A stretch of 64,000 nt of DNA from Mustelus asterias. Lineage: Eukaryota. This document shows, piece by piece, positions 8,728 through 45,352 of this stretch (positions are counted from its first letter, which is position 1; each line of letters opens with the position of its first letter). Location of the stretch: positions 57,102,001-57,166,000 of the forward strand of contig NC_135810.1 of assembly GCF_964213995.1 (NCBI RefSeq), written 5' to 3'. The notes under the pieces were generated by a model. That model searched no databases. It was not told the origin of the DNA and worked only from the letters and a program-made list of their open reading frames with translations. A program made the translations under genes and the position numbers.

Positions 8728-9448
8728 GCTTTGGACTTTTAACAGCAAATCCAATTTAGGATTTATACCAACCCCTTTTGGATTTATTTGCCTTGACTGC
8801 TGTACAAACTGTTCACAATTGCTTTAACTCTCGATTCTTAGTGTCCAGTAAAGTGGCATTAAATGTTTCATTTACCTCTGAGTCTGCTTACCACTTTAAA
8901 TCTGGTTACTGCAGTTGTCTCTTTAACTTAGAATACTTTGTTTACTCTTCCTTGAATTATTCTGTTAAATACCTTTGTCTTTGTTCTTTTAACTCCTTTC
9001 ATCTTATACATTTTTTCTGTTCCAATTCCCTGGTTATTTGGACTGTAACTTGTTCCTTAGGAAGCTTACAACTTTGCAATTCCCTTGCCCTGTCTAGCTT
9101 CTCCTGGTAGAGTTGAGAAAGGTTCACTTCCCAGTACCCTGTCACCAACTGCAGCATATCCAGCTAAAACGAAAGCTTTTTTGACGTTACAAGGGTCTCC
9201 AGTTGCTAAGCAGTGACTGTTACTTATATTTATTCTTCATGTTGTAGCTTTCTCTAAGCATAGCAGAAACACAGTTGGAACTTAATCAACCCCTATATAT
9301 ATAAACACCTTTGTCCCCATGAATCTAACTATAGGTTTTACTCTTCCAGGCACAAAACACTAAATTAAACTCACTTAAAATTATTCCTTATTCCTAATGT
9401 TCACCAATACAAATGCAAATCCCTTAAAACTACTTTTGTTGTCCTAAC
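8728..9448 (-). repeat. 3' LTR (distal part lost)
   Basis: Colinear with ~21010-21737 (e.g. aaactgttcacaattgctttaactctc, ttactgcagttgtctctttaact); abuts PPT ctttcaaagggggagg on the minus strand. Confidence 0.85.
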
Positions 9449-10625
9449 CCCTCCCCCTTTGAAAGAAATAACTCTTCATAAATATGAAGATTTCTTTACA
9501 TTGGTGTTACATCAAGCTTATGCAAACTTAACATGACAAATATTTAATCACATAACTAATTACATCATACAAGTACAGTGTTCTTAGTTTACAATTACAC
9601 ACCATAATATTTGATTACAATGGTTTAATCAAAACAAAGGCAATAACTTTAACAGCATCATCAGAATCTGTACATGGTAACATTATCATAACTTAAGTCT
9701 TGCATTTCTTTTTCTTCTGATTTTCAGTTTTCAACTCAAAAAAGAATGTTTCATTTAAGTCTGCAGAGCAATACAATTGTCCTTTTCATCACTTGTAGGC
9801 ATAATTCCTCTCTCAAGCCCACTTTCCAAATTCACTTGTGGTAAATGTCCATTTCGATTTAGCACAGCCAAAATGTAATTTTTGTGCATTACCATCTCCT
9901 TCTATGGTCGAAATGTCTTTTCTCTATTTTAAGAACTTTGTTAAGATGCTTCTTATGTTCATTCAAAATAGTATACTCTTACTCTGCTTGTCCTTTAAAC
10001 CTTTTGTGAATGTTGTTTCTCCCAGTCCTACTTCAAACGAGTTCATTTCAATTCTGTTTGTGTCATGTCAATCATTTGCTCTCTCTGAAGTTTCATAGTT
10101 CATTCGAATCCTTCAACTTTTTTGCACAGTTTCTGAACTATCTCATTCCAGTTCTCAATAGAGTTTGAATGGTCTTTGGCAAACAGTTAACTTGTCTTTC
10201 TTCCAGCTACCACATCTTATGTAGTATCACCGACAAGCATTTTTCAGTCAGAGTCTCTGGTCATTGACTCAGGAAGATCAGTTTGTTCTTTCAATACCTT
10301 TGGTTGACAATTTGCAATTTCCAGTTTTGCAGGTACTTTGGTTGTTTTCTTATTGTCCATTACTGACTTTAATACATCAGTAATATTACTTGGATCAGTT
10401 TTTTGCTAAACTGGATCACTATGCAAAGTGAGCTTTTATTTACAGGAACAACCTTTGAATTGCAACACTCTGTACCATCCACATTCTTCATTTCCTCCAT
10501 TTTGCTTTGTAGTTCAAAAATCTCAATGTTCTTCTCATGACGAAGTTCTGACAGTTTGTTAGTTTTGTTTCTTAATTCTGCATTCAACCAATTATTCTGA
10601 TTTACGAGAAGTTCCTTTTCTTGTT

Positions 10626-13600
10626 AGAACCATAGAACCATAGAACAATAGAAAATTACAGCTCAGAAACAGGCCTTTTGGCCCTTCTTGTCTGTGCCGA
10701 ACCATTTTATGCCTAGTCCCACTGACCTGCACTTGGACCATATCCCTCCACACCCCTCTCATCCATGAACCCGTCCAAGTTTTTCTTAAATGTTAAAAGT
10801 GACCCCGCATTTACCACTTTATCCGGCAGCTAATTCCAAACTCCCACCACTTTCTGCGTGAAGGAGCCCCCCCTAATATTCCCTTTAAACTTTTCTCCTT
10901 TCACCCTTAACCCATGCCCTCTGGTTTTTTTCTCCCCGAGCCTCAGCGGAAAAAGCCTGCTTGCATTCACTCTATCTATACCCATCAAAATCTTATACAC
11001 CTCTATCAAATCTCCCCTCAATCTTCTACGCTCCAGGGAATAAAGTCCCAACCTATTCAATCTCTCTCTGTAACTCAGCTTCTCAAGTCCCGGCAACATC
11101 CTTGTGAACCTTCTCTGCACTCTTTCAATCTTATTTACATCCTTCCTGTAACTAGGTGACCAAAACTGTACACAATACTCCAAATTCGGCCTCGCCAATG
11201 CCTTATATAACCTTACCATAACACTCCAACTTTTATACTCGATACTCCGATTTATAAAGGCCAATGTACCAAAGGCACTCTTTACGACCCTATCCACCTG
11301 TGACGTCACTTTTAGGGAATTCTGTACCTGTATTCCCAGATCCCTCTGTTCAACTGCACTCTTCAGAGTCCTACCATTTACCCTGTATGTTCTACTTTGG
11401 TTTGTCCCTCCAAAGTGCAATATCTCACACTTGTCCGCGTTAAACTCCATTTGCCATTTTTCAGCCCATTTTTCTAGTTGGTCCAAATCCCTCTGCAAGC
11501 TTTGAAAACCTTCCTCACTGTCCACTACACCTCCAATCTTTGTATCATCAGCAAACTTGCTGATCCAATTTACCACATTATCATCCAGATCATTGATATA
11601 GATGACAAACAACAATGGACCCAACACCGATCCCTGCGGCACACCACTAGTCACAGGCCTCCACTCAGAGAAGCAATCCTCCACAACCACTCTCTGGCTT
11701 CTTCCATTGAGCCAGTGTCTTATCCAATTTACTACCTCCCCATGTATACCTAGCGACTGAACCTTCCTAACTAACCTCCCATGAGGGACCTTGTCAAAGG
11801 CCTTGTTGAAATCCAGGTAGACAACATCCACCGCCTTCCCTTCATCCACTTTCCTGGTAACCTCCTCGAAAAACTCTAATAGATTGGTCAAACATGACCT
11901 ACCACGCACAAAGCCATGTTGACTCTCCCTAATAAGTCCCTGTCTATCCAAATATTTGTAGATCCTATCCCTTATCACACCTTCCGATAACTTGCCCACC
12001 ACCGACGTCAAACTTACTGGCCGATAATTTACCGGATTTCTTTTGGAACCTTTTGTAAACAACGGAACAACGGAACAACGGATAGGGTTAAAGAGAATCC
12101 TAAGGCGTTCTATAGGTATGTCAAGAACAGAAGGTTGGTTAGGGCAAGTTTAGGGCCAGTTATAGATGGCAGAGGGAAGTTATGTGTGGAACCGGAGGAG
12201 ATTGGTGAAGCATTGAACCAATATTTCTCTTCGGTGTTCACGCAAGGGGACATGAATATAGCTGAGGAGGACACTGGGTTGCAGGGGAGTAGAATAGACA
12301 GTATTACAGTTGATAAGGAGGATGTGCAGGATATTCTGGAGGGTCTGAAAATAGATAAATCCCCTGGTCCGGATGGGATTTATCCAAGGATTCTCTGGGA
12401 GGCAAGAGAAGTGATTGCAGAGCCTCTGGCTCTGATCTTCAGGTCGTCGTTGGCCTCTGGTATAGTACCAGAAGATTGGAGGTTAGCGAATGTTGTCCCA
12501 TTGTTTAAGAAGGGGAACAGAGACTTCCCCGGGAATTATAGACCGGTGAGTCTCACTTCTGTTGTCGGCAAGATGTTGGAAAAAATTATAAGGGATAGGA
12601 TTTATAGTTATTTGGAGAGTAATGAATTGATAGGTGATAGTCAGCATGGTTTTGTGGCAGGTAGGTCGTGCCTTACTAACCTTATTGAGTTTTTTGAGAA
12701 AGTGACCAAGGAGGTGGATGGGGGCAAGGCAGTGGACGTGGTATATATGGATTTTAGTAAGGCGTTTGATAAGGTTCACCATGGTAGGCTTCTGCAGAAA
12801 ATGCAGATGTATGGGATTGGGGGTGATCTAGGAAATTGGATCAGGAATTGGCTAGCGGATAGGAAACAGAGGGTGGTGGTTGATAGTAAATATTCATCAT
12901 GGAGTGCGGTTACAAGTGGTGTACCTCAGGGATCTGTTTTGGGGCCACTGCTGTTTGTAATATTTATTAATGATCTGGATGAGGGTATAGTTGGGTGGAT
13001 TAGCAAATTTGCTGATGACACCAAAGTCGGTGGTGTGGTAGACAGTGAGGAAGGGTGTCGTAGTTTGCAGGAAGACTTAGACAGGTTGCAAAGTTGGGCC
13101 GAGAGGTGGCGGATGGAGTTTAATGCGGAGAAGTGTGAGGTAATTCACTTTGGTAGGAATAACAGATGTGTTGAGTATAGGGCTAACGGGAGGACTTTGA
13201 ATAGTGTGGAGGAGCAGAGGGATCTAGGTGTATGTGTGCATAGATCCCTGAAAGTTGGGAATCAAGTAGATAAGGTTGTTAAGAAGGCATATGGTGTCTT
13301 GGCGTTTATTGGTAGGGGGATTGAATTTAGGAGTCGTAGCGTTATGTTGCAACTGTACACAACTCTGGTGCGGCCGCACTTGGAGTACTGTGTGCAGTTC
13401 TGGTCCCCACATTACAGGAAGGATGTGGAGGCTTTGGAGAGGGTGCAGAGGAGGTTTACCAGGATGTTGCCTGGTATGGAGGGGAGATCCTATGAGGAGA
13501 GGCTGAGGGATTTGGGATTGTTTTCGCTGGAAAGGCGGCGGCTAAGAGGGGATCTTATTGAAACATATAAGATGATTAGAGGTTTAGATAGGGTGGATAG

Positions 13601-14565
13601 TGATAGCCTTTTTCCTCTGATGGAGAAATCCAGCAGCGAGGGGGCATGGCTTTAAATTGAGGGGGGGTAGTTATAGAACCGATGTCAGGGGTAGGTTCTT
13701 TACCCAGAGGGTGGTGAGGGATTGGAATGCCCTGCCAGCATCAGTAGTAAATGCGCCTAGTTTGGGGGCGTTTAAGAGATCCGTAGATAGGTTCATGGAC
13801 GAAAAGAAATTGGTTTAGGTTGGAGGGTCACAGTTTTTTTTTTAACTGGTCGGTGCAACATCGTGGGCCGAAGGGCCTGTTCTGCGCTGTAATGTTCTAT
13901 GTTCTATGTTCTAACATGAGCCACCCTCCAATCATCCGGCACCTCACGCGTGAATACTGACATTTTAAATATGTCTGCCAGGGCCCCTGCAAGTTCAACA
14001 CTAGCTTCCCTCAAGGTCCGTGGGAATACCCTGTCCGGTCCTGGGGATTTATCCACTCTGATTTGCCTCAAGACAGCGAGCACCTCCTCCCCTTTAATCT
14101 GTAAAGGTTCCATGGCCTCCCTACCAGTTTGCCCTATTTCCGTAGACTCCATGCCCGTTTCCTCAGTAAATACGGATGCAAAAAAACCATTTAGTATCTC
14201 CCCCATCTCTTTTGGTTCCATACACAGTCTACCACTCTGGTCTTCAAGAGGACCAATTTTATCCCTCACTATCCTTTTGCTCATAACATACCTATAGAAG
14301 CTCTTTGGATTTTCCTTCACTCTGTCTGCCAAAGCAACCTCATGTCTTCTTTTAGCCCTCCTGATTTCCCTCTTAAGTAGCTTCTTGCACTTTTTATACT
14401 CCTCGAGCATCTGATGTGTTCCTTGCTGCCTGTACATTTCATACAACTCTCTCTTCCTCTTAATCAGTGTTACAATCTCCCTCGAGAACCAAGGTTCCTT
14501 ATTCCTATTTACTTTGCCTTTAATCCTGACAGGAACATACAAACTCTGCACTCTCAAAATTTCTC
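10626..14565 (-). mobile_element. CR1 LINE (outer copy; 10626-12070 and 13913-14565) interrupted by a second CR1
   Basis: ORFs 13904..14557 and 10830..12062 rejoin as VPDDWRVAHV-VPLFTKGSKRNPVNYRP; TSD cttgtt at 10620-10625 and 14566-14571. Confidence 0.93.
12080..13912 (+). mobile_element. Young CR1 LINE nested antisense within the outer CR1; near-intact RT
   Basis: 506-aa ORF 12135..13655 with [10 protein letters not shown] and KFADDTK; frameshift near 13635; (ttctatg)n tail. Confidence 0.96.
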
Positions 14566-14929
14566 CTTGTTCAAAGAATTTTCCACATTACTTCATAAAT
14601 ACTGCTGATGCTTGAAGTTCACCAACTTTTCAATGAAGTTCCACTTTTGCCAAGTTTGCTTTTTCAAGTTTATTCTTTCAGTAGTTCAAATCCTCAGTCA
14701 AATGTTTCACTTGTCCTGGCTGATTCTCAATTGTTCTCATTAGTTCTCATTTTTCATTCACAAACTGGTCTTTCCAAGGTGAAAATTGATTTTCTGTGTT
14801 AACCAGGTTTTTTTTTCAATTTCTTGTTATCTGCAATGATTGTTTCATTTTTCACAACAGTAGTTTTCAAAAGATTGTTAAGAACACCACGATCTTTTGC
14901 AATTCAGTTGTCATCACCTTACTGTCTCC

Positions 14930-15170
14930 AACTAGGATAAAATCTATTACTCCAATAAGTAATTTAGGAATAATTCCAACCATAACAATTCAATTTACAA
15001 AATTTCTTATTAAATTAACATTACACAAAGAAACAGGTTCATCCCTTCCATTAATATCCCATATTGATAGACTTTCCTTCATAAACCTTCCTGGAATACA
15101 AATTGTATCATTGGCCCCCATCGATGATTGATCTGCTCCTGTATTTCTCAGAATTTTAATTTGTTTACTT
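14930..15170 (-). pseudogene. Retrotransposon aspartic protease remnant
   Basis: IKILRNTGADQS (degenerate LRDTGA active site) ... VGIIPKLLIGVIDFIL. Confidence 0.7.
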
Positions 15171-15401
15171 ATTTTATTAAAGGAGTAAGAGTAAACTTCT
15201 CCCTTTGAAACAAAATGTCTAGAACTGCCTGACTTCCTTCATCAACACTTAAATAATTTTCTGAACTATCTTGAGGTCTATCCCCCTTTATCGTTGATTT
15301 TGAAATAGCACGTTTCACCTGTATCACTGCTATAGTTTTAACACAGTAAGAAGTCTCACAACACCAGGTTAAAGTCCAACAGGTTTATTTGGTAGCACAA
15401 G

Positions 15402-15438
15402 CCACTAGCTTTCGGAGCGCTGTCCCTTCATCAGGTGA
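15402..15438 (-). ncRNA. Minimal hammerhead ribozyme motif in pLTR
   Basis: UCAC-CUGAUGA-a-stemII-GAAAGCUA-GUGG. Confidence 0.65.
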
Positions 15439-16087
15439 GTGGGAATTCAGTTCACAAACAGGGCATATAAAGACACAAACTCAATTTACAAAATAATGGT
15501 TCGAATGCGAGTCTTTGCAGGTAATCAAGTCTTAAAGGTACAGACAATGTGAGTGGAGAGAGGGTTAAGCACAGGTTAAAGAGATGTGTATTGTCTCCAG
15601 CCAGGACAGTTAGTGAGACTTTGCAAGCCCAGGCAAGTCGTGGGGGTTACAGATAGTGTGACATGAACCCAAGATCCCGGTTGAGGCCGTCCTCATGTGT
15701 ACAGAACTTGGCTATCAGTCTCTGCTCAGCGACTCTGCGTTGTGTGTCATGAAGGCCGCCTTGGAGAACGCTTACCCGAAAATCAGAGGCCGAATGCCCG
15801 TGACCGCTGAAGTGTTCCCCAACATGAAGAGAACACTCTTACCTGGTGATTGTCGAGCGGTGTTCATTCATCCGTTGTCGTAGCGTCTGCATGGTCTCCC
15901 CAGTGTACCATGCCAACTGTCCTGGCTGGAGACAATACACATCTCTTTAACCTGTGCTTAACCCTCTCTCCACTCACATTATCTGTACCTTTAAGACTTG
16001 ATTACCTGTAAAGACTCACATTCCAACCATAATTTTGTAAATTGAGTTTGTGTCTTTATATGCCCTGCTTGTGAACTGAAATCCCAC

Positions 16088-16124
16088 TCACCTGATGAAG
16101 GGACAATGCTCCGAAAGCTAGTGG
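16088..16124 (+). ncRNA. Minimal hammerhead ribozyme motif in pLTR
   Basis: ctgatga at 16092-16098, gaaa at 16113-16116, gcta|gtgg; stem II imperfect. Confidence 0.6.
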
Positions 16125-16279
16125 CTTGTGCTACCAAATAAACCCGTTGGACTTTAATCTGGTGTTGTGAGACTTCTTACTGTGTTTACCCCAGTCCAAC
16201 ACCGGCATCTCCACATCATAGTTTTAACAGTCATTTATTTTTCAGATGCTTCCTTTCTTGCTACTGAAACTGGTCTTCC

Positions 16280-17550
16280 ATTTAATTTCCAACAGTATGC
16301 CCACGTATGTCCCGCTTCATTACAATGGAAACTCTTAGACCTCTGAATGTCTCTTCTACCCTCAGCACCTTCATTTTTGGTCTGAGGTGAAATTCCCTGA
16401 CCATTCCCAACTCTTCCTTCTCTTCCTTAACTATTTGTTTCCTTTTCCCCTTTCCACTTCCTATCCTTCTCATGTTTAAAAGGATGATGGACGAAAGGTT
16501 TGGTTTTCTGGATCAATTTGAAATCATCAGCTAACTCTGCTGCCTGTCTAGCAATTTTCATCCTTTGTTCCTCAATAGGCGTCTTAATAACCAAAGGAAG
16601 TGAATCTTTAAATTCTTCAAAAAGTATTGCCTCTCTGAGGGCTTCATATGTTTTCTCTACCTTTAATATCCGAAACCAATAGTCAAAACAATTTTGCTTC
16701 ACCCTCTCAAATCAATATGAGTTTATCTAGACTGTTTTCTTGTGTTCTGAAATTTCTGCCTATATGCCTCAAGAACCAATTCTTATGCACTATGGATAGC
16801 TTTCCTTAACACATCATAATTTATAGACATCTCTTCTGACAAAGACCCAGGCACCTCATTAACTCTACCTACCAGTACACTTTATAAAAGTAATGTCCAA
16901 ATATCTTTTGGCCATTACAGCTGTTTCGCCACCTTCTCAAAAGAAATAAAGAATGCTTCTGCAACCTTTCCCTCAAATTTTGGAAGAGCTTGTACAAATT
17001 TAAACATTTTCCCATGTCTAAGTTAATGTCTAGAACTACGTTCATCCTCAACCTGCTCTGGTGTCTCTTTTTTATTTGCCAGCATTTTAAACTGAAATTC
17101 TCTCTTTTTCTCCTTTTTCTCTTTCTTCCCTTGCTAATCTTTCCACTTCCATAACAAGTTTTCTCATTTCAATTTTCTTTTGAAAAACTCTCTGTTTTCC
17201 CTTTCTTTTTCCTGCACTTCAATTTTCTTTGTTTCTATTTCTTTCTCTTAATCTTTTTCTTTCATTTCTAATTTTTTCATTTCTATCTTTCTCCTTTTTA
17301 TCCCAGCATTTTTAATTGTTTCATTTGTACTTAAACTTTAGCTAATTCAATTTCTTAATTTTCCGGAGAACGTGGTCTATCTGACAACCCTTGCAATTTT
17401 AAGTGTTTCACAATGCTCTCTTAACTTTCCTTACCCCTATCCTAACTCCAATTTACCTTCCAGTTCAGTTTACTGACTCTTGATTACTTTCTGCCAAAGT
17501 TTAACCTTCCATCTTTTGGAAATCTTTAGCCATTCCAATGCCATTTTAGA
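16280..17550 (-). pseudogene. Gmr1-like gag remnant (coiled coil, SCAN-like region, degenerate CCHC knuckle)
   Basis: FEKVAKQL*WPKDIW; AYRQKF; LREAILFEEFKDSLP..IEEQ..AAELADDF; FHCNEAGHTWAYC. Confidence 0.85.
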
Positions 17551-18324: not shown

Positions 18325-18611
18325 CTTTTGTTATGATCCCAGTGGATGTTATAACTTGACAGGAAGGTTCCAGAATGGAACCCTGGCTCAAAAAAACGTA
18401 ACTTGTACCATTTTTTATAAAACGTGGAGGAACAGCGACATAGGGCCGTTAATAAATATAAACAACAACAAATAACATTTTGTAAACATGACAATAATGG
18501 ATTAGGGTAAATCCATTCACTTCTCCTTATCTTAGCAATTACACATAGATTTTCAGATCAACATGGATTAAAAAATTCATCTTATATTGCAATGGTCTTA
18601 TTAACACACAA

Positions 18612-20820
18612 TGGGAATGATTTTACCACTTCAACCCTGCCCATTGATGGGCTGGGTGAGCTGGTAAAATCGTGCGAAAGCCAAGAGATCAGGTTCGTGC
18701 CTGATTTCTCATCTCGCACAGTTTACGACACAGGATATAGAGTCATAGAGTCATAAAGGTTTACAGCATGGAAACAGGCCCTTTGGCCCAACTTGTCCAT
18801 GCCGCCCTTTTTTGTTAAAACCCCTAAACTAATCCCAATTGCCCGAATTTGGCCCATATCCCTCTATACCCATCGTACCATGTAACTGTCTAAATGCTTT
18901 TTAAAAGATAAAATTGTACCCGCCTCTATTACTACCTCTGGCAGCTTGTTCCAGATACTCACCATCCTCTGTGTGAAAAAATTGCTCCTCTGGACACTTT
19001 TGTATCTCTCCCCTCTCACCTTAAACCTATGCCCTCTAGTTTTAGACTCCCCTACCTTTGGGAAAAGATATTGACTATCTACCTTGTCTATGCCCCTCAT
19101 TATTTTATAGACCTCTATAAGGTCACCCCTCAGCCTCCTACGCTCCAGAGAAAAAAGTCCCAGTCTATTCAGCCTCTCCTTATAACTCAATCCATCAAGT
19201 CCCGGTAGCATCCTAGTAAATCTTTTCTGCACTCTTTCTAGTTTAATAATATCCTTTCTATAATAAGGTGACCAGAATTGCACACAGTATTCCAAGTGTG
19301 GCCTTACCAATGTCTTGTACAACTTCAACAAGACGTCCCAACTCCTGTATTCAATGTTCTGACTGATGAAACCAAGCATGCCGAGTGCCTTCTTCACCAC
19401 TCTGTCCACCTGTGACTCTACTTTCAAGGAGCTATGAACATGTACCCCTAGATCTCTTTGTTCTGTAACTCTCCCCAACCCCCTACCATTAACTGAGTAA
19501 GTCCTGCCCTGGTTCAATCTACCAAAATGCATCACCCCGCATTTGTCTAAATTAAACTCCATCTGCCATTCGTCAGCCCACTGGCCCAATTGATCAAGAT
19601 CCCGTTGCAATTGGAGGGAACTTTCTTCACTGTCCACTATGCCACCAATCTTGGTGTCATCTGCAAACTTACTAACCATGCTTCCTATATTCTCCTCCAA
19701 ATCATTAATATAAATGACAAATAACAGTGGGCCCAGCACTGATCCCTGAGACACACCGCTCGTCACAGGCCTCCAGTTTGAAAAACAACTCTCTACAACC
19801 ACTCTCTGGCTTCTGTCAAGCATCCAATTTTGTATCCATTTATATACCTCACCCTGGATCCCGTGAGATTTAACTTTATGCAATAACCTACCATGCAGTA
19901 CCTTGTCAAAGGTACCTTGTCCAACGCATTCTGCCTCCCGTCCATTTCCGGTGAGAGGCTGAATAAATTATTTAAATTTAATTTAACACTAATTTCCATG
20001 TGATTAGCGAGCCCAGGATGCAATTGTCGGGGCTCACTTGTCTTGGTGGCTTCACTGGGAGAGTTTCTTTCCGGCGAGGATCATGTATGGTTCCCATGAA
20101 TGGGGACCAGTCGTGATGGACTTGCCGGTAGAACTGGAGGTCATTGAGGCCACGCAAGAGGTTGAGGGTAAGGGAGGGTACCCCTTGGGCAGAGCCAGCC
20201 TGGCACTGCCATCTTGTCACCCTGGCAGTGCCAGACTCACACCCGGCATTGCCCATTGGGCACCCTGGCACTGCCTACTGGGCAATGCCGGGGCAGGACT
20301 TATGGGAGCAGGGCCTGGGGGGGTGGGGGTGGTCCGATCAAGTAGGGAGGGTGAGGGTGGGTGGGCCCAAGGGTGGGTCCACTGTGACCCTGCACACGAT
20401 TGGTGGGGGGCAGGGGGGCCACATTTGATCAAGTCATCTTGTGTGCTTAAAAGAGACTTTGGGGGTGATTTTATGAGAAAAATTCTAAGTGTCTAGCTAA
20501 CAAGAAAACAGAAAGGCTGCTGCAGCAGCAGAGGGTGCCACTGCGCATGTGAAGACCTTTGGTTGCACTACACAATGACAACCAGCAGACAGCTGACAGG
20601 TCTGAGAGATCTGTCAGCTCCCTGCTGCAGCCAACCTCAACAAACCTCCCCCAAACTCTCCCGGGGTTCCGCGGCTGATCACAAGTGCCCCCCTACCCAG
20701 AAATATCTCCCCTGTCCCCCCGCTGCCTGGAATGATTGCCTCCTCCCCCCATCCCCACCGATCATGTGCAGAGTGGTAGTGGCCCCCCCTCAACCTCCTA
20801 ATGATTGCATGCCCTCTATT
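18612..20820. mobile_element. Harbinger-like element pieces (18612-18730, 19925-20430, 20461-20820)
   Basis: gggaatgattttacc...ggtaaaatc hairpin; 19960-20300 resembles the reverse complement of 56540-56970; second TIR-like start gggggtgattttatgagaaaaattctaag at 20461. Confidence 0.6.
18737..19912 (-). mobile_element. 5'-truncated CR1 LINE (same subfamily as 1082 and 32022)
   Basis: ORF 18864..19883 is the RT C-half with KFADDTK; same 3'UTR and ctctatga tail. Confidence 0.95.
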
Positions 20821-22404
20821 ACTAACCCAAGTTAGTGTCTGTGGATTTCTCCTCAGAATCCCCTCTTTGATTGTCACATTAAAGTTTCCACACTCCACTC
20901 CCAAATAAACACACCATAAAATTTTTGTTGACATTAATGCTTTCCATTAATGGCTTGCATTCCAAACTGCAGTTCAAGTCTTCCGAATTACATTTCAAAG
21001 CAAAGTTTCTGCTCCACTTTTAACAGTGAATTTAATCCAGGATTTCCACCAACTCCTTTTGGATTTCTTTGTGCTGACTGCTATATAAACTGTTCACAAT
21101 TGCTTTAACTCTCAATTCGCAGAATCAAGTAAAATGGCATCAAACGTTTCATTTATCTCTGATGTCTGCTGTCCCACTTTCAATCTGATTACTGCAGTTG
21201 TCTCTTTAACTCAGAATACTTTGTTTACTCTTCCTTCAATTATTCTGTTGAATACCTTGGTCTCTGTTCTTTCAACTCCAATCATCTTAGACATTCTTTC
21301 TGTCTCAATTCCCTGGTTATCTGGACTGTAACTTGCTCCTTTGGAAGCTTGCATCTTTGCAATTCCCTTGTCTTGTCCAGTTTCTCCTGGCAAAATTGAG
21401 ATGTCAACTTCCCAGTGTCCTGCCTCCAACTGCAATATAACCAGCTAAAACTGAAACTTAAATGCTTTTTCTACCTTATAAGCCCCTCTGGTTACCAAGC
21501 AATGACTACTATTTCTATTTACTCTTCACGACGTAGCCCTCTTTAAGCACAATAGAAACACATTTGGAATCTAACCAACCCCCACACATGCAAACACCTT
21601 TGTCCAGCATGGATCTAACTGTAGGTTTTGCTCTTCCAGGCATAGAAACATTAAATTAAACCCACTTAAAACTATTCCTTATTTCTAATGTTTACCAATG
21701 CACATATAAATCTCTTAGAACTATCTTTGTTTTCCATAGAGCTGCAAATTACGTTAAATCAGTTCTTAGTATAAGATTTAGATTGATAAAATTGTGTTAG
21801 TCAAAGGTAATGAGGGATATGGGACAAAGCTTGAAATGTGTAGTCATATCACTGATCAACCATAATCTTACTGAATAATGGAACAGATTTGAGGACTGAA
21901 TGGCCTATTCCAGCTCTTGTATTCCAATGTTAATATTAAAAATATCCCAGTAAAGTATACTTAAAATGAATTTTCAATTAAATGCATGTCCCATGTAATA
22001 AAGAACTCTTGAACATGAAAATCATCAAGGGCAGTTGAAGAATGAAGTCCTGTTGGTATGCATTTTGAAAGAATACAAAATTATTGTCAGATATACTAAG
22101 GTACATATTGAACATGAGAGATATCTTACCGAAAGACATCTCAAGATGTTATTTTACCAGCATTATCCTTCAAAAATATCCTCGTGGCCTATCTAGAATG
22201 AATCTGCTGTGTTTTTCTGAAGCTGGTACAACAGAAATAGTTTATAACATCAATGATTCCACTAATGGTTACTTTTACTTTAGATTAAGTGATTCAGCAC
22301 AATCCTGTCTTCGCTGAAAGAATACCCGAGAGTGCAACCAATGTCCTTGCAACCTCAAATGTTACCCGGGTATCCGGATGGGGCTTTTTGTTTTCTGACT
22401 ATTT

Positions 22405-27264: not shown

Positions 27265-27711
27265 GTAAGTGAAGCGAGCACGGCTCAGCACGATCCTCAC
27301 AATACAACAGCACAATAGTCCATTTCCAGTGTTAAATTGAAGTTGTTCATTTAAGTGTGCAGAATTACACAAAAACTTACGGAAATCTTTGGGAAGTTTT
27401 GTTCTGGAATGCCATTAATAGGCTTGTAATTCTGCATTTGACTTTATAGACAGCTGATTCTGATATATATATTGTTTTTATTTAACATGTATCTGCATTA
27501 TAAAGCAATGCATCGTTAATATTTCGAGGAGGGTTGGTCTTTTTAAATGAAATAATAATTTAAATAAGTTAATATTCTATCGGCCACTGGATTTTGATGG
27601 TTTTAAAGACTTGGTGGAGAGGGGGAGTGGTGGTGAATAGTGTCATCTCCCGGTTAAGCGGCGTTTTTTGAGGCGTTCACTGTCACGCTGTTTAAGTTGC
27701 AGAAATGTATT

Positions 27712-29512
27712 TACATTGTTTAAACTCACCTACACTAACATGCCGTGTAAATTCACCTAGAGTAACATGCTGTTTAAACTCACCTACACTAACATGCTGT
27801 TTAAACTCACCTATAATAACATGCTGTTTAAACTCACCTACACTAACATGCCGTGTAAATTCACCTAGAGTAACATGCTGTTTAAACTCACCTACACTAA
27901 CATGCTGTTTAAATTCACCTAGAGTAACATGCTGTTTAAACTCACCTACAGTAACATGCTGTTTAAACTCATCTTGAGTAACATGTTGTTTAAACTCACC
28001 TACAGTAACCTGCTGTTTAAATTCACCTACAGTAACATGCTGTTTAAACTCACCTATAATAACATGCTGTTTAAACTCACCTATAATAACATGCTGTTTA
28101 AACTCACCTACAGTAACATGCTGTTTATACTCACCTAGAGTAACATGCTGTTTAAATTCACCTACAATAACATGCTATTTAAACTCACCTACAGTAACAT
28201 GCTGTTTAAACTCATCTTGAGTAACATGTTGTTTAAACTCACCTACAGTAACCTGCTGTTTAAATTCACCTACAGTAACATGCTGTTTAAACTCACCTAT
28301 AATAACATGCTGTTTAAACTCACCTACAGTAACATGCTGTTTAAACTCACCTACAGTAACATGCTGTTTAAACTCACCGAGAATAACACGCGGTTTAAAC
28401 TCACCTACAGTAACATGCTGTTTAAACTCACCGAGAATAACATGCTGTTTAAACTCACCGACAGTAACATGCCATTTAAACTCACCTACAGTAACATGCT
28501 GTTTAAACTCACCGACAGTAACATGCTGTTTAAACTCACCTACAGTAACATGCTGTTTAAACTCACCGACAGTAACATGCCATTTAAACTCACCTACAGT
28601 AACATGCTGTTTAAACTCACCTACAGTAACATGCTGTTTAAACTCACCGACAGTAACATGCCATTTAAACTCACCGAGAATAACATGCTGTTTAAACTCA
28701 CTGAGAATAACATGCTGTTTAAACTCACCTACACTAACATGCTGTTTAAACTCACCTACAGTAACATGCTGTTTAAACTCACCGAGAATAACATGCTGTT
28801 TAAACTCACCTACAGTAACATGCTGTTTAAACTCACCGACAGTAACATGCTGTTTAAACTCACCGAGAATAACATGCTGTTTAAACTCACCTACACTAAC
28901 ATGCTGTTTAAACTCACCTACAGTAACATGCTGTTTAAACTCACCTACAGTAACATGCTGTTTAAACTCACCGAGAATAACATGCTGTTTAAACTCACCT
29001 ACACTAACATGCTGTTTAAACTCACCTACAGTAACATGCTGTTTAAACTCACCTACAGTAACATGCTGTTTAAACTCACCTACAGTAACATGCTGTTTAA
29101 ACTCACCTACAGTAACATGCTGTTTAAACTCACCGAGAATAACATGCTGTTTAAACTCACCTACAGTAACATGCTGTTTAAACTCACCGACAGTAACATG
29201 CTGTTTAAACTCACCTACAGTAACATGCTGTTTAAACTCACCTACAGTAACATGCTGTTTAAACTCACCTACAGTAACATGCTGTTTAAACTCACCGACA
29301 GTAACATGCTGTTTAAACTCACCTACAGTAACATGCTGTTTAAACTCACCGAGAATAACATGCTGTTTAAACTCACCTACAGTAACATGCTGTTTAAACT
29401 CACCTACACTAACATGCCGTTTAAACTCACCGAGAATAACACACTGTTTAACTCCACCTACACTAACATGCTGTTTAAACTCACCTACACTAACATGCTG
29501 TTTAAACTCACT
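27712..29512. repeat. 27-bp minisatellite, about 66 copies, consensus ctcacctacagtaacatgctgtttaaa
   Basis: Direct reading; explains the MLFKLTYSN repeat ORF 28145..29521. Confidence 0.98.
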
Positions 29513-31765
29513 TCAACATAAACTTGTTAATTCTGGCACTTGGGTTCTTTACAAGCAACCTCTCACAGTGAATATTGACAGGTTGTTACATAGTTTGCTG
29601 TGACAGATGTTATTGAATGTATTTTAAAATATTTGGGAGTAAGAGTATTTTTTTCTAAGTCAGAAAGGAATATAATGTAATATTAGTTATGTTAGCTCCT
29701 TAGAAAATTAAATAAACTGATTATCCTTTGATGCTGTTATTTCTAAAGGTTAGTTTTCCTCGTTTCCTGCTGCAGAGTTACGGTAGGCTCGTAGCCCGAG
29801 CTGTGTGAGCTCAGCATATCATCCAATGTCCCACAGCGTCAAAGCACTGGGGTGATGCCTAGGAAGGAGTAAAGAGGAACATCTTTGGAGAAAAAACTAA
29901 CTCAGACATTTCTGCAGTGATATAAAATGAGAATGCTTGGTGATTTGTTTTGTGCATTACTACACACTGATATATTCAAGCTGATATTCAGGGAAAGGGA
30001 GACTGTTTTCTAGTGCCTGTCATCCTAATGTTTAATTTAAGAACACCATTACTTTCCTCTAAATTTCACATAATATGAACCACTCGAGTAGGATTTGTGA
30101 CTTGATCCTGTTAAGGATCTCCTTCTCGCAGCTACCTGAAGAATCTGAATAAATATTTGTTTGGGGACAACATTAATTAATGTTCATGGGAAAATAGCCA
30201 GACCTGATCAAATATTCCATAGGGCACAAACTGTCTCTTGTATTGTTGGGATGAAGTGGAGGAAAGTGTTATCTGTGGGAGACAATGGTTCAGGGTGAAA
30301 TAATGGGGGTTTGCATTTGTGAAGCAGTCTAAAGTTTTGTCTGATTGCTTTTGGAAAAGAAGAAGTATTTATGTTCAATGTGCCTTCCAGAAATTAATTG
30401 GGGAAGTAGTCATGACAGAGTGTTGGGTCTGAGAAAGGCTTGATGGGTGAACACCCATTTCTAACTTTATGCCTTTTTTTGAAAGTTACCCAAAATCAAG
30501 CAGTTTAATTATACACAATGGGTGGTCAACCTGTTCCATTTACTTCCCTCTCCATTTTAAAAATCAAACAAATTGCAGTTGTTAATGTACTGTGATGAAT
30601 TTTGCATTGAAAGTGATTCAATTTTTCTAACTCTCTTTCTTACTATTAAGACACTGCTTTTCCCCTTAATCTGTTTTTTTCTGTCTTTTAGACTTCACGA
30701 TATCCAACATTAATTCTCAGATTTAGGTGCTGCAAATGTATTATTTTCTTGCCATACTAAATCTGCATGTTCTTTATCTAGTGTAAAATTGTTTACAGTG
30801 TCACCTATTACAGTTCTCCCCATTACCAGACATTTGTTCAGTGATATTAACCTTGAGGTCACTTACTCTTTCACCTCCATCATTCTGACTGCTCACCCAG
30901 TGGTTAAATATGAAGTTTTCATTGATCTACCTTCCTTTTCTTGCGATCAAAGTCAAATTGTGTTAAAGTTGAGAAATGCTGTTGATTGAGATAGAAACGT
31001 ATCCTGGCCTTTAATATCAGACTGCATGCCTTGCTGGACCTGATCTCAGTAATGAGGAATATCTCACCAGCCACCACTTTATATCTACAACTATAGGGAT
31101 TACAGTCAAATAACTGCTTTGTAGTCTGGCCTGGTAACAGGGTAGGTTTTCAAAAGTGTACATAGCAGTCACAGCTGAGTGACCCTGGCAGTCTTTGGTT
31201 CAAACGGATGCACAATTAATATCTGGTAACAAACAGAAAAAAGCCAGGAGAGATATTAAAAGCCCTGGTCGTGTAAGAAGTACAAAGAGAACTTTTCAAA
31301 TTGAATCTAGTTACAGTAAATTGGATGTTTTCTAAGTTGCTTATCAAGCTCTCTAACGAATGCCTACAGCAGTCATTTCCTCCCTGTATCAATTTTTCCC
31401 AAAGCCTATTGCCAAGGCAACAGAGTGAGGAACAGATTAAAGGGCAAATAATCTCCTTCAGATATCTCAATGTTGAAAAGATGGATCTCCTCACTTGGTT
31501 CCTGGCTATAATCTGGAACTTGTGCCTCGAGAGTCCATTTTATCTTTCCAGCAGGTAAACCACAAACATTTGGGAATATCCCATTTTGTAAAACCATTTG
31601 CCATTTGATGCTTTACTGTCTTCCCTTCCTCCCACTTTACTTACTTCCTGTTTAAACATTTCACAATTTGACCAAACAGGTTCTGGATCACCCTCATCTG
31701 TTTATGTTTCCTAATTGCATGAACATCACTTCTCATTCTCTATTACATTCTAAACACCAAAATCA

Positions 31766-33172: not shown

Positions 33173-33476
33173 AACAGAATTCTGGCTGCCTTCCTATTAG
33201 CCAGGATAAACTATGCCAGTTATCCTTGGGGAAAGGTCTATGGGGTGTACACTTGTGTTTGATAAGAAGGAAGAATACTCACCTGAAGTCTGAAGTGATG
33301 AGATATGGGGGATGGTGAGGGGGTGATGGTGGGGGAGGAGGGTTGATTGGAGTTGGGGTTGAGAATTGGCACTGTACCAGATTGAAGCCTGCTTCTGCAA
33401 CCTCTGCTAACTGTGTCCTATTCCCACACCAGGTCCCATTCAATTTCACTCTTGGGCCTTGATCTACATAGGCTTT

Positions 33477-34507
33477 CACTCTCAGCACAGGCCCAGCTCA
33501 CTCTCAGCACAGGCCCAGCTCACTCTCAGCACAGGCCCAGCGCACTGTCAGCACAGGCCCAGCGCACTGTCAGCACAGGCCCAGCGCACTGTCAGCACAG
33601 GCCCAGCGCACTGTCAGCACAGGCCCAGCGCACTGTCAGCACAGGCCCAGCGCACTGTCAGCACAGGCCCAGCGCACTGTCAGCACAGGCCCAGCTCACT
33701 CTCAGCACAGGCCCAGCTCACTCTCAGCACAGGCCCAGCTCACTCTCAGCACAGGCCCAGCTCACTCTCAGCACAGGCCCAGCTCACTCTCAGCACAGGC
33801 CCAGCTCACTCTCAGCACAGGCCCAGCTCACTCTCAGCACAGGCCCAGCTCACTCTCAGCACAGGCCCAGCTCACTCTCAGCACAGGCCCAGCTCACTCT
33901 CAGCACAGGCCCAGCTCACTCTCAGCACAGGCCCAGCTCACTCTCAGCACAGGCCCAGCACACTCTCAGCACAGGCCCAGCACACTCTCAGCGCAGGCCC
34001 AGCTCAGTCACAGCACAGGCCCAGCTCACTCTCAGCACAGGCCCAGCTCACTCTCAGCACAGGCCCAGCTCACTCTCAGCACAGGCCCAGGTCACTCTCA
34101 GCACAGGTCCAACTCACTCTCAGCACAGGCCCAGCTCACTCTCAGCACAGGCCCAGCTCACTCTCAGCACAGGCCCAGCTCACTCACAGCACAGGCCCAG
34201 CTCACTCACAGCACAGGCCCAGCTCACTCTCAGCACAGGCCCAACTCACTCTCAGCACAGGCCCAGGTCACTCTCAGCACAGGTCCAACTCACTCTCAGC
34301 GCAGGCCCAGCTCACTCACAGCGCAGGCCCAGCTCACTCTCAGCACAGGCCCAACTCACTCTCAGCACAGGCCCAGCTCGCTATCAGCACAGGCCCAACT
34401 CACTCTCAGCACAGGCCCAACTCACTCTCAGCACAGGCCCAACTCACTCTCAGCACAGGCCCCGCTCGCTATCAGCACAGGCCGAGTTCACTTACTCTCA
34501 GCACAGA
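33477..34507. repeat. 22-bp minisatellite, about 47 copies, consensus ctcactctcagcacaggcccag
   Basis: Direct reading; 66-bp/22-aa periodicity in ORFs 33413 and 33459. Confidence 0.98.
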
Positions 34508-34559
34508 TCCTCTCTTGCTCCTCCCCTGCGTGCTCCAGTGCTCCCTCCTTGAATGGAGT

Positions 34560-35364
34560 CAGGAATCTCAGCTTGGGCATCCCACCGCCCCTCTTCACTC
34601 GCTCATGGTGGTTGTGAGCAAGCTTATCCTGCAGGGAAACAAATGGAGATTGTATGATCTGGCCACTTGGTGGGTCAGGTGTTGGTGAAGTCTGGCGTAT
34701 GTGGGCATGGTGCGTGAGCAGGAAGGGGTTGTGAGGAGAGGAGTTCCAGGGGTCTGAGGAAGCTTATGGGATGTCGGGTGCTGGAGCCCTGCTAGGTGGC
34801 AACATGTGGGGTCAAGGTGGCTTTCTGAGGGGTGACAGCAAGGTAGAGTGCAGAAAGGGTACCTGAAGTGCTTACCCTGGCAGAATGGAGTAGCTCGATC
34901 ATCTTTTTACGGCATTGCACCCCCATCCTCTTGTGGAGGGTGCTGGCACTCACCAGTGCTGGCACCATCTCCCAGATGGGGTCTGTGACCTTGCTGGAGG
35001 GTCTCCTGCCAGCCTGAGGGTAGATTGTTTCTCTTCTCTCCTCCACGGCATCCAATATTCTAGCTGGGGCACCCCACTATCCCCGTAAACCTTGGAGCTG
35101 GCTTCCTCACTGCCATCCTCCCGGATTGAATGAGAGCAAGTGTTGTGGAGCTGTTTAATTGCAGCGTCCCTTTGATTAAAGTGTTCAGATCACCCTGGGC
35201 GGGTGAATCAGATCATTCACGACACAGTCGCCTTTCACATGGGGAAATGTTTTCCTTCAAAGTGTCTAAAAATTGTGGTCTGGGTCGTGCTATCGGGGCC
35301 GATAGGATTCGCATTGGTTTTCACACCGAAAGCGACACAGCCAAAATTTAGGAAAGTTCTGCCC
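34560..35364 (-). mobile_element. Harbinger element end with Myb/SANT-like DNA-binding exon remnant
   Basis: ORF 34792..35055 DAVEERR..YP..GRRP...WE.V...VSA.....QCRKK, followed by donor agg|gtaag; TIR gggcagaactttcc at the right end. Confidence 0.8.
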
Positions 35365-44138: not shown

Positions 44139-44431
44139 GGCTGAGCAGAAACTGATAGCCAAGTTCCGCACACACGAGGACGGCCTCAACCGGGATCTTG
44201 GGTTCATGTCACACTATCTGTAACCCCCACGACTTGCCTGGACTTGCAAAATCTCACTAACTGTCCTGGCTGGAGACAATACACATCTCTTTAACATGTG
44301 CTTAACCCTCTCTCCACTCACATTGTCTGTACCTTTAAGACTTGATTACCTGTAAAGACTCACATTCCAACCATTATCTTGTAAATTGAGTTTGTGTCTT
44401 CATATGCCCTGTTTGTGAACACGACTCCCAC

Positions 44432-44468
44432 TCAACTGATGAAGGAGCAGCGCTCTGAAAGCTTGTGG
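44432..44468 (+). ncRNA. Minimal hammerhead ribozyme motif (partly mutated)
   Basis: ctgatga at 44436-44442, ggagc-agc-gctct, gaaa at 44457-44460, gctt|gtgg. Confidence 0.5.
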
Positions 44469-44635
44469 CTTGTGCTACCAAATAAACCTGTTGGACTTTA
44501 ACCTGGTGTAGTGAGACTCCTTACTCTGCTTATAGATGCCATGATGTGGAGATGCCGGTGTTGGACTGGGGTAAACACAGTGAGAGTTTTAACAACACCA
44601 GGTTAAAGTCCAACGGCTTTATTTGGTAGCAAATG

Positions 44636-44672
44636 CCATTAGCTTTCGGAGCGCTGCTCCTTCGTCAGATGG
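44636..44672 (-). ncRNA. Minimal hammerhead ribozyme motif (best-preserved copy)
   Basis: CCAU-CUGACGA-a-GGAGC-agc-GCUCC-GAAAGCUA-AUGG. Confidence 0.72.
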
Positions 44673-45352
44673 AGTGGATATCTGCTCACAAACAAGGCAT
44701 ACAAAGACACAAACTCAAGTTACAGAATACTGATTAGAATGCAAATCTTTACAGCTAATCAAGTCTTAAAGATACAGACAATGTGAGTGGAGAGAGCGTT
44801 AGGCACAGCTTAAAGAAATGTGTATTGTCTCCAGGCAGGACAGCCAGTGAGATTCTGCAGGTCCAGGCAAGCTGTGGGGGTTACCGATAGTGTGACATGA
44901 ACCCAAGATCCCAGTTGAGGCCATCCCCATGCGGAACTTGGCTATCAGTTTCTGCTCAGCAACCCGGTTCAATATCTTTCAGCAACCCGGTTCAATGCAT
45001 CAGGGAATGTCGGAGAAACTACCTGCTTGTTGTGAACTTTACCGACCAGGATATTTGTCCTGAGGGAACACCATTGAACGACGAATCCAATGGGCATTTT
45101 TCCTATTCCCAACATCCAGTCTTCATGTGTCCTTTTTTTAATGACAAAAGAGTTCCCTTGAACCAAACTTGTCCAACAAACTTTCTTTTTTACTAACCTG
45201 AGCAGTATCTTTACCTTTGCCATCTTTCTCAGATTTCTTTTCATTATCAGACTTCCCATCTATCCAATTTCTCTGCAAGTGTCCAAACTGGGGCTTGTTA
45301 TAATGTGAGGTAATTCATAATCATCTGCCAAGACAATGGTTTTCTTTATTTT

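Follow-up and report, generated by a model that had tools for sequence, protein, structure and literature searches.

This locus raises the question of how a piece of the gene for the nuclear-basket nucleoporin TPR came to lie inside a long terminal repeat (LTR) retrotransposon, and what the element has kept of it. The window, that is the whole stretch of 64,000 nucleotides (nt) that was analysed, comes from the shark Mustelus asterias (GCF_964213995.1, NC_135810.1, positions 57,102,001 to 57,166,000 of the forward strand). A first-pass annotation, made from the letters alone, had proposed an LTR element carrying a captured, spliced TPR fragment. On the minus strand of the window lies a Gmr1-like Gypsy element, now dead, with the order LTR-gag-protease-TPR piece-downstream frame-LTR. 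It is one of more than a hundred dispersed copies, and it was apparently an open frame, rather than the TPR residues, that was kept while the family replicated.

The captured sequence derives from spliced TPR mRNA

The TPR identity is borne out by protein and DNA comparisons alike. Positions 10625-10483 match Pfam PF25481 (Nucleoprot-TPR) at E=1.2e-13, and 14815-14572 share 36/75 identities with amino acids (aa) 104-178 of whale shark TPR (P0001, E=2e-19). At the DNA level the two stretches are 70% (14815-14566, host coding nt 331-564) and 73% (10625-10483) identical to the coding sequence of the host gene. Moreover, KDRGVLNNLLKTTVVKNE corresponds to TPR exon 1 (z=12 vs 100 shuffles). The colinearity with the TPR N-terminus that had been proposed therefore stands for aa ~104-233 and fails at exon 1, which is joined by a deletion to the end of exon 3. 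Nor is there a single frame of ~155 codons, as had been suggested; the join is 469 nt long, with shifts in an A-run near 14805 and near 14897.

The host TPR gene (G000:C8:79.56-79.63 Mb) is the best PF25481 match and the sole PF07926 match. Its exons 1-15 could be mapped with AG/GT boundaries, and the protein that they encode is 93.5% identical to TPR of the whale shark. A PDB search with the host exon gave nothing useful. A genome search with PF25481, in which 150 of 490 candidates were scored, gave 144 matches, one being the host gene. Among loci L002-L135, 103 match the host coding sequence and 88 are left once 15 duplicates are removed; all copy counts are lower bounds.

The donor must have been a spliced mRNA, because single alignments cross the exon joints and the introns are absent. 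The joint of exons 4 and 5 is crossed in 70/76 copies (36/37 of group A, to which the window copy belongs, and 34/39 others) and that of exons 5 and 6 in 74/76 (35/37 and 39/39). The 3/4 joint is crossed in 12/37 group A and 29/39 other copies, and joints 6/7, 7/8 and 8/9 in 31, 26 and 19 of the 39 non-A copies. One copy (L111) aligns with host nt 20-1068 through nine joints, which span 21.6 kb in the gene. The comparison with shark exon junctions that the first-pass annotation had called for thus upholds the proposal that an LTR element took up spliced TPR mRNA; the capture concerns the whole family and a larger piece than was claimed.

The joint with the element is equally well defined. In 42 copies, identity to the host starts ~12 nt upstream of the ATG, directly behind the GNDLA end of the protease (PR). 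This joint is in frame in 19/26 group A and 11/16 group B copies (30/42 together), 25 of them free of any indel, as expected of the predicted Gag-PR-TPR fusion. In L012, a natural copy, the end of gag, the protease and TPR share one frame that is interrupted by a single stop. Element sequence flanks TPR on both sides; neither a poly-A tail nor a target duplication belonging to the TPR piece was seen, partly as judged by eye. The motif TTGCAGG occurs both in the 5′ flank of the host gene and where PR ends in L063, displaced by three bases from the ungapped register, and may represent microsimilarity at the switch point.

Organisation of the element

The features of the element are collected in Table 1. 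As first annotated, the TPR segment lies in element sense between the protease and the polypurine tract (PPT)/3′ LTR. The statement that it stands in place of reverse transcriptase (RT) and integrase is right in that pol has been replaced, but the order had to be corrected to integrase first and then RT, as in Gmr1-type elements. Integrase precedes RT in the nearest intact proteins (P0122 and P0134), as in the domain order PR-IN-RT-RH that defines Gmr1. TPR occupies the place where integrase would start, the element is without integrase, RT and RNase H, and it is therefore incapable of moving by itself. No env was seen in it.

A decayed Gmr1-like locus with protease followed by integrase (L148:5985-3902) is a candidate relative of the helper. 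A full autonomous helper was not found, L148 being the only one of 40 gag-selected loci with an integrase; many of the others run off into unrelated DNA. Protein searches with a broken copy and with gag gave no match at E<=0.001. The gag of the window scores against Pfam SCAN at E=1.2e-4, which is under the curated cut-off, and is 35-44% identical to aa 146-395 of P0122 (E=5e-39), itself SCAN-bearing. The SCAN-like capsid is also matched by P0132, a Heterodontus zinc-finger protein (E=4e-8), possibly through a gag-derived domain or a gene-model fusion. The catalytic position of the protease is N in the window and D in 13/19 scored late-A copies.

The two LTRs are 82% identical over 720 nt (Kimura two-parameter distance 0.19). 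The three pieces of the 5′ LTR are colinear in L164, L171, L160 and L062, and a TGG-led stretch, a candidate primer-binding site, follows the LTR. The LTR query brought up 2769 candidates genome-wide, of which 40 were scored, with 43 matches. Other copies have the LTR ends TGTTA...TAACA and the PPT, while the 3′ LTR of the window lacks its end. A target-site duplication of the element was seen in none of three other copies inspected, all of which are old and possibly rearranged. Gag and PR are contiguous in other copies, without the palindromic insertion. A palindromic repeat (arms 270-390 nt, 84-96% complementary) is present at 15340-16186 and again at 44140-44963 (44.1-45.0 kb).

Table 1. 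Features of the element and of the later insertions within it (positions in the window)
Feature	Position	Strand	Remarks
5′ LTR	18329..21735	-	later insertions ~20860-18610; ends GGGATCATAACA; first bases eroded
Gmr1-like gag (coiled N-terminus, SCAN-type capsid, zinc knuckle)	16190..17500	-	stops and frameshifts
Palindromic insertion, later, between gag and protease	15340..16186	.	inverted arms 15340-15611 / 15915-16186, 96%
Gag-PR linker and aspartic protease	14930..15339	-	protease 15220-14930; 39% to P0122 aa 424-520, E=2e-6
Captured TPR: end of 5′ untranslated region (UTR; ~12 nt) and exon 1, codons ~1-33	14827..14929	-	z=12 vs shuffles
Captured TPR: end of exon 3, exons 4 and 5, start of exon 6 (aa ~104-186), intron-free	14566..14815	-	BLASTP E=2e-19
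CR1 LINE (long interspersed nuclear element) insertion, later	10626..14565	-	RT frames; 6-nt target duplication
Captured TPR: exon 6 (aa ~186-233)	10483..10625	-	PF25481 E=1.2e-13
Long frame that runs on from TPR, ~230 codons or more across the family	9693..10482	-	~790 nt
Polypurine tract	9450..9460	-	AAAGGGGGAGG before LTR, here and in L013, L022, L183
3′ LTR, 3′ part lost	8735..9449	-	TGTTA start in other copies

A CR1 block interrupts the TPR sequence in the window and has AACAAG (CTTGTT on the plus strand) on either side, at 14571-14566 and 10625-10620, so that the target duplication first proposed is correct. The block is a later insertion because orthologous contigs in two other organisms (X9 and X13; ~5% diverged) lack it, running from 14564 straight to 10617/10592. 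All 29 other copies compared match both TPR halves, which are mostly directly adjacent; in a few copies (L022, L025) they are separated by other insertions. A second CR1 is nested in the first in the opposite sense (~13913-12069; joint 12068-13913). This nested CR1 is skipped by contigs in all four runs compared, as other CR1 copies would do.

A single capture followed by pruning

The tree, built from the 78 loci that cover 230 or more of the 390 core bases (10 were dropped), is a star of long tips with one derived clade, A, to which the window copy belongs (stem 0.107, support 1.0). The star radiation, the derived clade and the shared deletions together indicate one origin, in which TPR exons 1-12 were captured once and in-frame deletions then gave rise to several groups. 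The modal deletion sizes are 201/207, 54, 96 and 186 nt. Nearly all longer copies are without ~186 nt between exons 10 and 12, and most also without ~96 nt between exons 9 and 10. Groups B1 and A have lost ~201-207 nt between exons 1 and 3; in B2 the pol linker is joined to exon 2, with an additional loss of 54 nt. The longest group B copies end near TPR aa 460. In group A, TPR ends at exon 6 (aa ~233) and a new frame follows, which leaves TPR aa ~1-33 and ~104-233. Between A and B, gag has diverged far more than the protease. L133 combines a B-type TPR with an A-type 3′ frame, and in L137 and L150 TPR is cut after exon 6 and followed by a B-type 3′ end; all three are possible intermediates.

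Group C consists of nine loci that have no Gmr1 gag-PR and whose 3′ end differs from that of the other groups. Eight of the nine (L060:3633-3955, L069, L074, L061, L067, L125, L059 and L068) contain as much as 280 nt (68-79%) from a 1.7-kb coiled-coil exon that belongs to another host gene (L185:622-2318, G000:C18:53.43 Mb). The joint with TPR is at AGGAAyTA, common to these copies and a possible case of microsimilarity. Pfam and PDB gave no name for the second donor, whose exon presumably resembles the large exon of ninein. Another coil lies 5′ of the second-gene piece, and no third donor gene was found for this far 5′ coil of group C.

The tips of the tree measure 0.13-0.20 substitutions per site, several times the split from the X9/X13 organisms. 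Of 18 sites that differ between host and whale shark, B copies mostly agree with the whale shark at 8 and with the host at 9, and are split at one; we therefore infer that the capture would have taken place near or before the split from the whale shark. All examined copies are dead and old, and no stop-free, frame-intact copy is present among the 88 loci, which are the part of the family that was fetched.

Downstream of TPR, the TPR frame in group A has no stop common to 40% of 18 copies over 1128 nt, while the other two frames have many. The frames that follow TPR in the window (10482-9693, group A) and in L057:5820-6300 (group B) are long and different from one another. They may be further captured mRNAs; searches of Pfam, PDB, ESM Atlas, the fetched polyproteins and the genome lists gave no convincing match for the downstream frame. 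L182 and contigs C131, C140, C115, C118, C49, C284 and others yield near-identical weak matches to it. These matches, on many unplaced contigs, are best read as an old fragment amplified within a larger duplicated unit, and TPR is absent from the 5.5 kb examined.

The open frame, rather than the protein, appears to have been kept

Selection was examined in 28 late-A and 7 early-A copies and in 39 others; two intermediates and two near-duplicates were excluded. Majority-column frame walks gave single-base register shifts, and the joints were therefore re-measured copy by copy. In group A, 0 stops are common to the copies where 3.5 are expected (P about 0.03). Along the path from B to A (~0.2 substitutions per site) there are 0 stops and 0 frameshifts in common against about 3 and 3-5 expected; the joint P is 0.0003-0.002, and that of stops by themselves 0.03-0.06. 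Moreover, no common stop interrupts the TPR-3′ joints in A or in B (25 copies). At three CGA codons the B copies are split between TGA and CAA and therefore the B founders were open there; no TGA is fixed in A.

Constraint on the residues is weak and non-significant. The ratio dN/dS (omega) is 0.68 (95% 0.39-1.38) on the B-to-A path vs 0.77-0.87 within groups by the pairwise three-point method, and 0.57 vs 0.87 (p=0.13) in codon models. With exon 1 and group C added it is 0.62 on internal branches vs 0.87 on tips (p=0.11), so that the dN/dS check proposed for function returned no significant signal. The protease has 0.58 and gag 0.54-0.65. Host-hydrophobic sites, at 0.83 vs 0.62 elsewhere, show that the hydrophobic coil positions were kept no better. 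Three coil positions are Pro/Gly in 73-78% of late-A copies and in none of the host, Gly being the residue in the translations seen. The host-to-B omega of 0.12-0.18 was set aside as evidence, since host and element change are inseparable without outgroup DNA.

Several observations weigh against selection for the frame as such. On every path the internal omega falls short of that of the tips and is similar to that of gag and protease, and therefore leaves room for some residue constraint. Microhomology here already favours in-frame deletions (50-83%), and the null for stops and frameshifts assumes that replicating branches mutate like dead copies, whereas RT errors may differ. In group C, 5/9 copies have a stop at CGA codon 224, either by parallel CpG decay as in B or as a shared stop. 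The joints are in frame in only 4/7 copies of C and 3/7 of B2, and derivatives without TPR exist (L139).

How the chimera may have arisen and what the TPR piece may do

On balance, and with somewhat more confidence than doubt, we favour a non-autonomous Gag-protease element in which the captured TPR mRNA serves as translated open-frame filler. A Gmr1-like Gypsy element would have co-packaged TPR mRNA in its particle. Immediately after the protease, RT would have changed templates to the TPR 5′ UTR and returned near the 3′ end of the element, a route to the observed product that swaps integrase-RT-RNase H for TPR exons 1-12. A double template switch of this kind in the particle has been modelled for LTR-mediated retroposition (PMC5131818). 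Autonomous relatives would then have mobilised the chimera through several rounds, during which TPR sequence was presumably shed by in-frame deletions and the flanks swapped. The predicted product is a Gag-PR-TPR-X polyprotein, and selection would have acted mainly to keep a single frame open from gag almost as far as the 3′ LTR, and not on the TPR sequence. The likeliest reason may be that an early stop leaves a long 3′ UTR, with the genomic RNA then prone to nonsense-mediated decay or packaged poorly; Rous sarcoma virus RNAs with a premature stop in gag are reported to be decayed and less packaged (PMC5035971).

It is possible, if doubtful, that the coil itself was useful as an oligomerisation or spacer domain of the polyprotein, like the TPR N-terminus in TPR-kinase fusions, and helped Gag-PR to assemble or to co-assemble with helper Gag; N-terminal TPR residues are reported to activate met, raf and trk (PMC3258255). 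TPR aa 104-233 are most often covered in all groups while the flanks vary, group C gained a second coiled-coil gene, and the internal omega of 0.55-0.65 is within the gag/PR range. However, copies were found through aa 104-233 queries, which biases any core that seems always kept; omega is not significantly under that of the tips, helix breakers spread in A, and the hydrophobic sites have the higher omega. A pure passenger, spread by its LTRs and packaging signal and open only through chance and a short replicative history, strikes us as rather improbable. It would accord with the non-significant dN/dS signal, with B founders that still had CGA at insertion, so that the burst probably came soon after capture, and with the secondary retroposition described for LTR retrocopies (PMC5131818). 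Set against it are the long B-to-A path without a common stop or frameshift, and the heterologous PR-TPR and TPR-3′ joints, whose in-frame state is not accounted for by a microhomology bias. That a LINE made an independent retrocopy, which landed in a single LTR element, can practically be dismissed. CR1 LINEs are abundant here and reportedly make retrocopies in non-mammals (10.64898/2026.06.26.734816), but dozens of dispersed copies have the identical joint, no tail or duplication of its own was seen, and pol is replaced rather than interrupted. This origin is refuted for the window copy, and the situation that had been named as fatal to the capture, a segment in one copy alone with its own target duplication and poly-A, is not what we find.

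The first-pass annotation had further suggested that the fusion docks particles at the pore or interferes with the retention of unspliced RNA. Docking at the basket, or a dominant-negative partner of host TPR that eases export of unspliced element RNA, seems to us very unlikely. TPR is reported to limit export of intron-containing Gag/Pol-CTE RNA (PMC3258255), the protein of the founders was still close to host TPR (host-to-B dN 0.04), and the in-frame position behind the protease could free a TPR piece. On the other side, human TPR 1-304 and shorter pieces are described as not associating with the pore, the minimal region being aa 435-649 (PMC2175216), and Nup153 binding as depending on L458/M489 (PMC3258255). 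Mapped in human numbering, this region is absent from A, which ends at aa ~233, and is cut at ~460 in B. The pore-binding region is thus missing from the window's group, and docking of the element at the nuclear pore is therefore unlikely. Group A is down to ~50% identity with helix breakers, and N-terminal fragments are reported to have rescued, not blocked, retention (PMC3258255). Positive evidence for interference did not emerge, with omega not significantly different from dead-copy decay and hydrophobic positions not favoured. A more adventurous version, a long shot in our estimation, is that the host coiled-coil modules (TPR and the ninein-like one) were working polyprotein domains and that the TPR piece paired with the host TPR N-terminus and loosened basket retention of unspliced element RNA. 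If true, this would be a counter-defence taken from the restriction factor itself and handed between element backbones.

Other features of the window

A 27-nt tandem array of ~70 units with three frames open lies at 27600-29600, and a GC-rich short-period tandem array, in which all three plus-strand frames are open, at 33390-34690.

Comparison with known systems

The element shares the SCAN-type capsid, zinc knuckle and protease of Gmr1-like Gypsy elements and differs from them in being without integrase, RT and RNase H. Oncogene-transducing retroviruses have a defective genome with an in-frame host fragment and depend on a helper. The in-frame host fragment is common to these viruses, to TPR-kinase fusions and to the shark family, as is the N-terminal TPR region in the fusions; the shark family has no kinase, was amplified in the germline and shows no sign of a selected host function. 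Plant TR-GAG elements (PMC4350172) are likewise described as non-autonomous, helper-dependent LTR elements and keep the Gag frame only, whereas the shark element retains the protease and lengthens its frame with host mRNA. Maize Bs1 is reported as an LTR element with pol replaced by host gene pieces, a hybrid frame and shared switch points (PMC5131818, PMC13317346). Bs1 has 1-5 copies and is expressed today, in contrast to a vertebrate family that is far more numerous and dead in every copy seen.

The capture mechanism itself is already known as LTR-mediated retroposition, which Tan et al. (2016) describe in fly, mosquito, zebrafish and chicken as well as in mouse and human (PMC5131818). The cases reported there, including HERV-K/FAM8A1, likewise have a partial spliced host mRNA in sense between the halves of an LTR element, without poly-A, and multi-gene chimeras and secondary retroposition are also described. 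Those cases are mostly young and low-copy; the shark family has more than 100 dispersed copies in several subfamilies and backbones, fused in frame to Gag-PR, with evidence for a frame kept during replication. We found no description of a TPR-carrying LTR family in the open-access literature (Repbase and Dfam were outside the scope of the search), and TPR is absent from the main text of a 2026 retrocopy survey that includes cartilaginous fishes, whose supplements may list these loci. With more than 100 TPR-like decoys, shark genomes call for caution in annotation and retrocopy counts. The family shows the fate of a successful mRNA-capturing chimera, with many copies, nested subfamilies, stepwise pruning and a second capture, and is a natural data set on what a non-autonomous LTR element must retain in cis; it suggests that an open frame, not a protein, can be the selected trait. 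Taken together, what is new relative to the known systems is the scale and longevity of the family, its pruning by nested in-frame deletions, the exchange of backbones together with a second donor gene, and the evidence for the keeping of a frame rather than a protein.

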